From Prevotella sp. (GTDB lineage: Bacteria; Bacillota; Clostridia; Lachnospirales; Lachnospiraceae): a stretch of 64,000 nt of DNA. Positions 24,648 through 26,743 of this stretch are shown one piece after another. Position 1 is the stretch's first letter. Each line of letters starts with the position of its first letter. Below the pieces are notes generated by a model that saw only the letters and a list, made by a program, of their open reading frames with translations, ran no database searches and was not told the DNA's origin. Where the stretch lies: contig CAVIPV010000001.1 in assembly GCA_963644495.1 (NCBI GenBank), forward strand, positions 23,764 to 87,763. Direction: 5' to 3'. The translations under genes were made by a program, and so were the position numbers.

Positions 24648-25445
24648 TTAATCCTCATCAAACCAGCGGTCATACCACATACCTTCTGCCCAGCTGTACT
24701 GGGTCATATATTCCCCCCGGTACTCACTTACCGCAGCCGGATCCTTGTCATCAAATTCGTAGGCATCGCAGCTGAACATCTCTGTATTTACGGAATAATG
24801 ATTATGATCGTGGATCAGCAGTCCCTCGATCCCGGCTTTTTTCAGAGAACTTTCCAGCTCCCGCACGATCTTTGAAACATAATCCTGTACCGTCCGGGAA
24901 TACTCCGCATCCTCAAAGAGGACCGCCGCCAGCTCTTTTCTGGTAAGTCCGCCTCCTCTTTTGTGGATCAGATAGGCCAGAAGCTCCTTGGATTTTGCTC
25001 TTCCGAAGCGCACCGGCTCTCCGTCTAACAGAAGGTCAAACTGGCCGAAAGTGACAGCACGAAGTCTTTTTTTAGGCTTTTCCCGGGTTTTAGGGAAACG
25101 GATCTCCTTTAACTCCCGTTTGATGGCATCTGCAGTCACCGGCTTTAATACATAGCCGCTGGCATGAAGACTGAATGCCTCCATTCCGTAATTGCTGTAG
25201 GCCGTCACATAGATCAGATTGATCTGGGGATGGAGCTCCTTTAACATTTTTCCAAGCATGATCCCGTTGATGTCCGTCATTTCTATGTCTAAAAAGGCCA
25301 CATCACAGGTATGCTCCTTTGCATATTCATAAGCTTTTTTCGGGTCCTGAAAGCCTACGATAGTCTCTCCCTCTACTACAGAGCTTAGTTCTGCCTTTAA
25401 AAGCTCCAGACTCATTTTCTCGTCATCTACTAATAAATAGGTCAT
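24648..25445 (-). CDS. Response regulator with REC domain plus SARP-type winged helix and truncated BTAD-like domain
   Basis: LLVDDE, FLDIEM and YVLKP receiver motifs; TFGQFDL..DGEPVRF...KSKELLAYL, CDAYEF and YRGEYM..YSWA output motifs. Confidence 0.85.
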   Translation of the reverse strand: MTYLLVDDEKMSLELLKAELSSVVEGETIVGFQDPKKAYEYAKEHTCDVAFLDIEMTDINGIMLGKMLKELHPQINLIYVTAYSNYGMEAFSLHASGYVLKPVTADAIKRELKEIRFPKTREKPKKRLRAVTFGQFDLLLDGEPVRFGRAKSKELLAYLIHKRGGGLTRKELAAVLFEDAEYSRTVQDYVSKIVRELESSLKKAGIEGLLIHDHNHYSVNTEMFSCDAYEFDDKDPAAVSEYRGEYMTQYSWAEGMWYDRWFDED

Positions 25446-26743
25446 GCTTTCTTTCCTTCCCGGGGGATCCAGATCCTGCATTCTGTTCCCTTCCCTTTCT
25501 CACTGAGGATTTCCAGTGTTCCTGCGCACATCTGCTGTAAGCGATCCCTGACATTGGCGATCCCGATATGGCTGCGTCCGTCATCGGGAAGCTTAGAGGG
25601 ATCAAAGCCCACGCCGTCATCCAGCACCGATACGCAGTATCCGTCATCAGTGCGCCGGGAGCGGATCGTTACCGTTCCCCCTCTGGAGTGCTTCAGTATT
25701 CCGTGCTTTACTGCGTTTTCCACCATAGGCTGAAGAGTCAGCGCAGGCAGAGAAAAATCCTTTTCTTCGATTTCCCATTTAATATGGATGCGGTCCTCGA
25801 AACGCACCTTTTCCAGAGTAAGATAATGCTGTACGTGAAGCATCTCCTTTTCAAAGGGGATGGGCTCCTTGGAGGTCATGGCGTCCAGATTTCCCCGAAA
25901 ATACATAGCCAGCTCATCCACTGCCTTTGCCGCAAACTTGGGATCGGTAAGGCACAGATATTTGATAGTTGACAAAGCATTAAAGAGAAAATGGGGGCCG
26001 ATCTGGGAGACCGCGATGCGGATGCGCATTTCACTTAAGTCTGACAGATTTTTCTGAAACTCCTTGTACTGGACCGTCCGGGAGGTGATATACATGGCAA
26101 ACAACGAAAAGGTGATAGCCATATTCATCAGGGAAACTCCGTAGATCCAGGTCTGAAACAGTGTTGCAGCAAAAGGAAACAGCAGATAGCTGATAAAACA
26201 AAGATACATATCCTTGCGGATCCGTTTCCGATAGGCCACAAGCAATACTGCGTCCATTGCCATTCCAAAGATTCCGATCCCCTGCAGCATCCACCAGTAA
26301 GGGCCTCGAAAATAAATATTTTCAGGTGTAAATCCATAGAACAGAGCCGTATTCTGCCCCAGAGTCAGGACAAAGACAGCAATCAGGGACAGCCCCAGAA
26401 TAAAACTCTTGTATTTTTTGATTTCCTGAAAATAGCTTTCATCTTCATCTGCATATCCCAGAGCATAGACCGTAAACAGATACAGGAGCAGAAAGTTGGT
26501 CACATATACCATATAATTGCTGATGCGCACCATATAAAAACCGGCTGTGGTCACGTTTCCCCGAAACAGCCAGGCAAGAGCATCAAAGACCAGCTGCAGG
26601 AAATCGATCAGTAAAAGACTGCCCAGAAGCTTATCCTGTTTTTCCCTCAGTTCGCCGCCCATACACAGCCCTACGAAGGCTGCCAGACAGAAAAATGCCC
26701 CCCATATTTCCATTGCCGCATGAACGGCTGCCTTTATTTCCAT
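25442..26743 (-). CDS. Membrane sensor histidine kinase, LytS/YesM-type
   Basis: SQIGPHFLFNAL, LQPMVENAVKHG, DDGVGF and HIGIANV motifs; several N-terminal TMs. Confidence 0.92.
   Translation of the reverse strand: MEIKAAVHAAMEIWGAFFCLAAFVGLCMGGELREKQDKLLGSLLLIDFLQLVFDALAWLFRGNVTTAGFYMVRISNYMVYVTNFLLLYLFTVYALGYADEDESYFQEIKKYKSFILGLSLIAVFVLTLGQNTALFYGFTPENIYFRGPYWWMLQGIGIFGMAMDAVLLVAYRKRIRKDMYLCFISYLLFPFAATLFQTWIYGVSLMNMAITFSLFAMYITSRTVQYKEFQKNLSDLSEMRIRIAVSQIGPHFLFNALSTIKYLCLTDPKFAAKAVDELAMYFRGNLDAMTSKEPIPFEKEMLHVQHYLTLEKVRFEDRIHIKWEIEEKDFSLPALTLQPMVENAVKHGILKHSRGGTVTIRSRRTDDGYCVSVLDDGVGFDPSKLPDDGRSHIGIANVRDRLQQMCAGTLEILSEKGKGTECRIWIPREGKKA

Follow-up and report, generated by a model that had tools for sequence, protein, structure and literature searches.

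A receiver protein with a shortened SARP-like output domain is the probable activator of a direct-repeat regulon that includes a type IV secretion operon in a Lachnospiraceae genome

The subject of this analysis is a 64,000-nucleotide stretch of a Lachnospiraceae genome (the window; GenBank assembly GCA_963644495.1, recorded as Prevotella sp., contig CAVIPV010000001.1, positions 23,764 to 87,763), in which a gene pair for a sensor kinase and a response regulator lies directly beside the operon of a predicted type IV secretion system (T4SS). The operon and other units are headed by a direct repeat with a period of 11 nucleotides (nt), and it is highly likely that the adjacent regulator binds this repeat and activates its promoters. 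The regulator is very probably the predicted binding factor, and activation rather than repression is the best reading of its role. The assignment follows from the way in which both the presence and the sequence of the repeat track the regulator family across genomes. A sequence-only reading of the window had already named this regulator as the likely activator of the motif, and comparative genomics supports it. The window is part of the largest contig of a 3.0-Mb assembly that is 91% complete.

The repeat, TGTCCYACAnT-TGTCC, occurs eight times in the window, always on the minus strand, whereas 200 first-order Markov simulations of the window gave a mean of 0 copies. The genome holds 17 repeats in total, 14 on the window's contig and one on each of three others; the pattern read backwards has 0 genome matches. 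At all 17 sites the best -10 hexamer begins 17 nt past the first position of the second half-site. An extended TG stands ahead of a near-consensus hexamer in 13 of the 17 promoters. In a weight-matrix scan the sites score 27–33 bits and the next match only 14 bits, so the set is sharply bounded. Pattern search, simulation and matrix scan thus confirm the earlier description of eight window sites with 11-nt direct repeats and fixed -10 spacing. A scan for consensus sigma-70 promoters found 18 where 18.3 were expected.

The sensor histidine kinase (25442..26743, minus strand, 433 amino acids) is of the LytS type, with matches to PF06580 (E 2e-20) and HATPase_c, an H-box histidine at position 251 (His251) and at least five membrane helices predicted from hydropathy; its input part is embedded in the membrane, with little outside it. 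The response regulator (24648..25445, minus strand, 265 amino acids) consists of a receiver, an AfsR/EmbR-type winged helix and a short stub resembling the start of a bacterial transcriptional activator (BTA) domain. Its gene shares 4 nt with the kinase gene and most likely starts at 25445, where a ribosome site stands in front, rather than at 25481. The receiver residues D7, D8, D53, T81 and K101 are present and are invariant in 76 relatives. The pair therefore has the features of a classical two-component system, namely a kinase H-box plus ATPase domain and a receiver with intact phospho-acceptor residues, between which phosphotransfer would be expected. The regulator is the sole member of its family in the assembly. 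From its stop codon to the repeat (start 24632) there are 15 bp, and the order there is TGTCCCACATT-TGTCCCACATG, then TATAAT; the coordinates thus bear out the claim that the pair ends 15 bp ahead of the site heading the T4SS operon. This site comprises the repeat (24611-24632) and a -10 box (24599-24604) found by sequence scan (24599..24632, minus strand).

The sequence-only reading had described the output domain as SARP type and not LytTR, which holds for the winged helix but only in part for the BTA domain. Pfam reports a receiver and a sub-threshold match to Trans_reg_C (18 bits vs a cut-off of 26.2). LytTR appears in 0 of 76 full-length family members, and Pfam BTAD is found neither among the 19 families listed for these 76 proteins nor among the matches listed (25 of 33) for 84 output domains. 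A profile of the output domain searched against solved structures ranks EmbR (E 1e-5) and AfsR first. Because a fold search with the full-length protein was filled with receiver domains, the output domain was modeled alone (pLDDT 92.6). This model aligns with AfsR over 130 residues (Z 13.0, root-mean-square deviation 2.7) and with EmbR at Z 12.6, compared with Z 10.1 or less for OmpR/PhoB domains; Foldseek ranks the relatives identically. The alignment covers AfsR residues 21-175 alone. According to the AfsR study, the BTA domain spans residues 120-270, and the contacts to the C-terminal domain of the RNA polymerase alpha subunit, together with most contacts to sigma region 4, lie past residue 175 (PMC10936776). 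In place of a complete seven-helix BTA domain of about 150 amino acids, the regulator has some 45 residues past the wing, forming three short helices. This tail is conserved, so the regulator does not end at the wing as an OmpR/PhoB type would; an acidic loop matching AfsR E76/E77 is retained and the far BTA helices are gone. The protein is a receiver joined to a SARP domain that breaks off behind the first helices of BTA, SARP-like and not a full member.

The regulator, whose family numbers 2068 proteins at E 1e-20 or better, combines traits of several known systems. Its winged helix and BTA start superpose best on Streptomyces coelicolor AfsR and Mycobacterium tuberculosis EmbR. Unlike these, however, it has an N-terminal receiver, a cognate LytS-type kinase and a BTA stub of about 40 residues, and it is associated with another repeat sequence, good -10 boxes and secretion targets in Clostridia in place of antibiotic clusters. 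It shares receiver and winged helix with OmpR/PhoB proteins, and a full-length model matches DrrB, PhoP and VanR first, but it differs from them in its sub-cut-off Trans_reg_C match, its helical tail, its LytTR-like receiver and a partner kinase of PF06580 and not HisKA type. The kinase family and the receiver, whose best solved relative is LytR, resemble LytS/LytTR systems, whereas none of the 76 full-length members compared from the regulator family has a LytTR output domain.

Does the arrangement of the sites identify the binding protein? The 11-nt repeats over the -35 position and the fixed -10 offset in 17 of 17 sites agree with the SARP geometry put forward in the earlier reading, but this geometry is not specific to SARPs. 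The same 11-nt period is found at the -35 position in boxes of the OmpR/PhoB family, as in the pho box, where direct repeats replace the -35 element. Furthermore, the genome has 13 other matches to the OmpR/PhoB-type DNA-binding domain Trans_reg_C; geometry alone therefore cannot name the binder. An unlinked OmpR/PhoB-family regulator, possibly one missing from the incomplete assembly, might bind the repeat and leave the adjacent regulator as a passenger. The afs box is likewise made of two 11-nt repeats over -35 in about the same register; it is a 22-bp element from -40 to -19 (PMC10936776), and its offset would also be 17 nt if the -10 hexamer starts at -12.

Comparison among genomes separates these possibilities. 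The repeat was found in 3 of 61 relatives (15-17 copies each), which are exactly those with a 91-100% identical regulator, and in 3 of 37 genomes across the whole genus. The three repeat-bearing relatives are one clade and hence count as one event. At 10 loci with a 72-92% identical regulator, a site stands directly behind the regulator in nine and VirD4 is reached in eight, the exceptions being one rearranged locus and one contig end. All of these cases belong to a single lineage, and genomes may be shared between the 61 relatives and the 10 loci, so the two counts are not additive. The record titles of loci L023-L032 name unrelated phyla despite 72-92% protein identity; they look unreliable and were not used for taxonomy.

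More distant islands, found by searches with VirB6-like proteins (in 8 of 400 genomes and in 13 of 401) and through one distant regulator locus, extend this pattern. Six genomes (G459, G807, G811, G910, G911 and G1010) have a 28-41% identical family member inside a related secretion island, and in all six a pilin-like gene is headed by an 11-nt repeat of other sequence: GGTGTA in G459, TGTCAY in G807, TGTCTCAC in G910, TGTTGGAC in G811 and G1010, and TGTTGCG in G911. Counted over the whole genome, the repeat is present 16 times in G910, 14 times in G811 and 6 times in G459; the TGTTGGAC kind has 4 copies in G911 and 2 in G1010. Where TGTTGGAC is present, the regulators of the three genomes share 46-60% identity, and their recognition helices are almost alike. 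On the family tree the island regulators are spread over at least four branches (7 changes; a single change in 0 of 200 bootstrap trees). The repeat of the respective genome also stands at dispersed kinase homologues in G811 (2 of 2), G911 (2 of 2) and G910 (the 1 fetched). The G911 island (L169 12354-17814) appears to hold a regulatory cascade, as it encodes two family regulators, the second headed by a TGTTGGAC site, while TGTTGCG sites stand before the pilin-like gene and before each of the two kinase homologues. G459 also has a second family regulator (L064 9835-10630), with a receiver that lacks the phospho-acceptor Asp; either of its regulators could bind GGTGTA.

The closest secretion cores are found in G759, G912, G944, G792 and G122, with VirB4 61-66% identical in the four that have VirB4 on the contig. 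A profile search found a family member in none of these five genomes (73-96% complete), and in the four whose operon front was fetched, the stretch ahead of the operon shows no repeat in register. In the three closest islands LytTR regulators adjoin the operon instead (L146 2066-2788, L142 18509-19258 and L149 3426-4226), an apparent regulator swap. The covariation of motif and regulator clade, which the sequence-only reading had proposed as a check, thus turned out as expected, with repeat presence and sequence following the regulator lineage across genomes.

A further set of 68 family loci had been held out from the definition of the scan; 66 of them have no secretion island in sight, the others being L064 and L065. 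The scan looked for a TG-headed repeat plus -10 box up to 300 nt downstream of the gene, with offsets of 16-19 allowed. Such a repeat was present at 25 of the 68 loci, in 11 of 31 clusters at 60% identity, and at an offset of exactly 17 in 23 of the 25; among controls it was found behind 15 of 2066 genes and behind 0 of 23 other receiver genes. These comparisons make binding by an unlinked regulator very improbable: the repeat is absent from 34 of the 37 genomes of the genus, its sequence shifts with the adjacent regulator, it is missing where a LytTR regulator takes that place, and none of the 23 other receiver genes has such a repeat behind it.

The same register bears on the sign of control. 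The regulator could bind the repeat and repress, or both repress and activate, promoters that are active alone through their extended -10, since TG precedes a near-consensus hexamer in 13 of 17 cases and the box covers the -35 position. Occlusion, however, needs neither the exact 17-nt register nor the constant orientation seen in all 17 sites and in 23 of 25 family sites. In addition, there is no consensus sigma-70 pair at the four sites inside 22000-37000, and the closest structural relative activates from the same position (PMC10936776). Repression is therefore quite improbable, and activation by the adjacent regulator remains preferred.

Several results weigh against this assignment. Beyond overall similarity, the recognition helix did not correlate with the repeat (partial rho 0.04; 731 of 2000 permutations as high), and the recognition-helix window ranked 99 of 255, in a set of 19 dereplicated proteins out of 35. 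The formal test of a recognition-helix code was thus negative; the top-ranked window lay at the start of helix 1, a result that 19 proteins are too few to interpret. An in-register TGTCC site was present in 5 of 12 genomes with the most similar helix vs 1 of 6 others, so that a similar helix predicts TGTCC sites weakly. An advance prediction for G911 was half borne out, in that a second island regulator exists but its helix class was not the one predicted. In G902 and G860 the secretion system is accompanied by an unlinked family member, yet their operons carry no repeat. In G122 (73% complete) the operon is preceded by an 11-nt repeat in four copies, although a family member was not found there. 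The stretches fetched around kinase homologues of G1010 and G792 contain no site, and 43 of the 68 family loci are without a downstream repeat. The 13 of 17 promoters with extended -10 could in principle work without an activator. Finally, the assembly is 91% complete. In sum, the repeat follows the regulator lineage, and a residue-level code is not established.

Some smaller trials and observations belong beside these results. The G122 four-copy repeat (L077, about 16955-17000) precedes a STAS-CAAX-VirD4 operon and has no -10 box in register. In G894 the operon front lies off the contig. A TGTGAC repeat predicted for G860 and G902 had two matches in each and was uninformative, because G912, which is without the family, also has two. 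A loose TGTCA pattern gave nine matches in G807 vs one to five in four other genomes, a weak difference. Family regulators with downstream repeats adjoin phage-tail-like genes at L012 and L061, which suggests that they may control a contractile-tail locus in other genomes.

The island also contains partner-switching genes, namely STAS (22819-23106), an anti-sigma-type kinase with a SpoIIE phosphatase (26783..28853, minus strand) and a further gene of the set (1817-3007), and such genes accompany most related islands, whether or not these have the regulator. Their presence here and in most relatives is what would favor the repeat being the upstream element of an alternative sigma factor that these proteins release. 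We regard this as extremely improbable: no sigma factor was seen near the partner-switching genes or among the contig proteins scanned, the -10 is of the housekeeping type, and the genes are also present in the repeat-less islands G759, G944 and G902. A similar set beside a secretion system, the SpoIIE phosphatase, STAS protein and serine kinase of Bordetella BtrU/BtrV/BtrW, controls secretion post-transcriptionally (PMC7498569). That system is type III and belongs to a diderm, and the parallel is one of gene content alone.

What does the regulon contain? Behind the site at 24632 follow 15 minus-strand genes, separated by no more than 118 bp, which form the predicted secretion operon (3676..24517, minus strand; domain and NCBIfam matches). 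It encodes a choline-binding protein, an OB-fold protein, a STAS protein, a CAAX protease, VirD4 (19367-21667), an Ig-like protein, two VirB6-like proteins (16083-17396 and 13410-16067), VirB4 (10576-13311), a solute-binding protein, a pilin-like protein (7961-8302), a second choline-binding protein and a 1031-residue protein. VirB4, VirD4 and VirB6-like genes thus stand together in one operon, which identifies the machine as a T4SS of the Mycoplasma-ICE type. The best NCBIfam matches are families of the Mycoplasma integrative and conjugative element (ICE), Mbov_0397 (VirB4, 546 of 590 bits), MMCAP2_0566 and Mbov_0395; both VirB6-like proteins and the pilin-like protein match Mycoplasma-ICE families above the cut-off.

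The 17 sites together head the secretion operon, a unit for an HD protein and a STAS-phosphotransferase, a lipoprotein, a 79-residue reading frame and 13 large proteins. Four further large proteins lie within repeat-headed units, giving 17 large proteins of no assigned function. These are 503-1141 residues long, rich in K and E, with lysine-rich ends, and contain neither a membrane nor a signal stretch (highest 19-residue hydropathy 1.28). Six of them, all in repeat-headed units, form a paralogous group marked by DRH..N and IDND motifs and matching PI3/4-kinases weakly, and two share a Cys/His/Asp papain-like pattern. The kinase-like domain has no solved relative by sequence. No members of these large-protein families were found outside repeat-headed units, save one at a contig end. 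Of 16 genomes tested, 7 have the kinase family, and each of these also has a related machine. Most of the candidate cargo genes have no small neighbor that could encode an immunity protein, which would lean towards a eukaryotic target.

Whether the secretion machine exports the 17 large proteins is, on the gene content described, a roughly even question. The broader proposal stands equally balanced: in gut Clostridia a Mycoplasma-ICE-like T4SS may have become specialized for translocating proteins, with sets of at least a dozen effectors that include the PI3/4-kinase-like and papain-like families, and regulators of an undescribed receiver/SARP-stub family may have been recruited to it several times. 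Repeated recruitment would make the effector list of a genome readable off its own repeat. Separate from the question of the binder, the machine may transfer DNA like a Mycoplasma ICE, or be a settled remnant, with the large proteins not its cargo, a possibility to which we give appreciable weight, though less than even. In its favor, Mycoplasma ICE families are the best matches of the VirB4, VirB6-like and pilin-like proteins, ICE-like loci house the more distant relatives, and a relaxase could be unassembled or of an unmodeled family. Mycoplasma ICEs are reported to move DNA with a minimal machine (PMC12857230). On the other side, relaxase families PF03432, PF02486, PF03389 and PF01076 have no match in the genome as assembled, other families having been sought among the contig proteins scanned, where neither relaxase nor integrase was found. 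The sites lie amid housekeeping genes on four contigs, gene order is conserved across the clade with VirD4 89-98% identical, and the co-regulated proteins are enzyme-like paralogue families without signal peptides. Unlike the Mycoplasma ICE, moreover, this system belongs to a walled host and has cell-wall-binding and Ig-like extras and dispersed co-regulated proteins, and, within those searches, no relaxase or integrase. No tRNA genes are located at the island or at the other repeat sites.

The monoderm T4SSs with a reported role beyond DNA transfer are those of the Streptococcus suis 89K island and of Patescibacteria (PMC12857230). Compared by description, the former is on a pathogenicity island with one reported substrate, and the latter has pilin arrays vs the one pilin-like gene here.

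A scheme can be proposed from what is observed, namely the sites with their constant spacing to a sigmaA-type -10, the fold class to which the output domain belongs, and the joint occurrence of repeat and regulator family across genomes. A membrane signal would lead to autophosphorylation of the kinase and transfer to D53 of the regulator, presumably from this kinase. Receivers would then pair, placing a head-to-tail regulator pair on two half-sites spaced by 11 nt that replace the -35 element. The two winged helices could lie in successive major grooves over the -35 position and recruit sigmaA polymerase, with the far BTA helices missing and contact to RNA polymerase probably made through the winged helix alone. 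Activation of the 17 promoters would yield the T4SS together with the 17 large candidate cargo proteins.

Direct-repeat activation by winged-helix regulators is already known. Neither the site of this regulator family nor this secretion system was found described in the literature searched, which covers few subscription papers. A site model is now offered for a large regulator family without a characterized member or site in that literature, and the shortened domain raises the question of how SARP-type activation proceeds when the BTA domain is largely missing. Beyond this, the regulator site links a T4SS, in several genera, with a bounded set of dispersed candidate substrates, so that the secretion question becomes testable gene by gene. 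If true, the proposal would mean that proteins are secreted by a machine whose main known role in Gram-positive bacteria is to transfer DNA.

The remaining window sites, each a repeat plus -10 box on the minus strand, head the following genes. The site at 3619..3652 heads the HD protein and STAS-phosphotransferase, followed by a kinase-like and a papain-like protein as the unit runs past the window's edge. That at 33013..33046 heads a 503-residue protein of no assigned function, and the unit probably continues through a MATE protein, formyltransferase, SpoIIE phosphatase, anti-sigma-type kinase, sensor kinase and regulator, since gaps do not exceed 39 bp. This site may therefore transcribe the sensor kinase and regulator themselves, as positive feedback; such a loop was not seen in L031 or L032. 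The 921-residue kinase-like candidate cargo protein (33063..35828, minus strand; DRH..N and IDND motifs) is headed by the site at 35883..35916. Upstream of it, the 79-residue reading frame (35977-36216) has its own site at 36251..36284. Sites at 39067..39100 and 55329..55362 head, respectively, an 895-residue protein (36308-38995) and proteins of 787 (52874-55237) and 575 residues (51106-52833), all of no assigned function, and the site at 43836..43869 heads a protein ending at 42216 whose true start comes after the site.

Other genes of the neighborhood are of interest. An NlpC/P60 protein (55414-57231) lies directly upstream of a site and is itself without one; it could provide a wall hydrolase, which is missing from the operon. 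Amid the regulon genes stand three genes of GGDEF or GGDEF-EAL type (40862-42019, 57312-60933) that have no sites. A two-copy 11-nt TGTCCG repeat, outside the regulon matrix, precedes a pseudouridine-synthase-like gene (L007 near its end; G000 C19 27390-27411). Two back-to-back site pairs (L001 3495-3548 and 8488-8559) serve divergent genes, the first pair being 10 bp apart.

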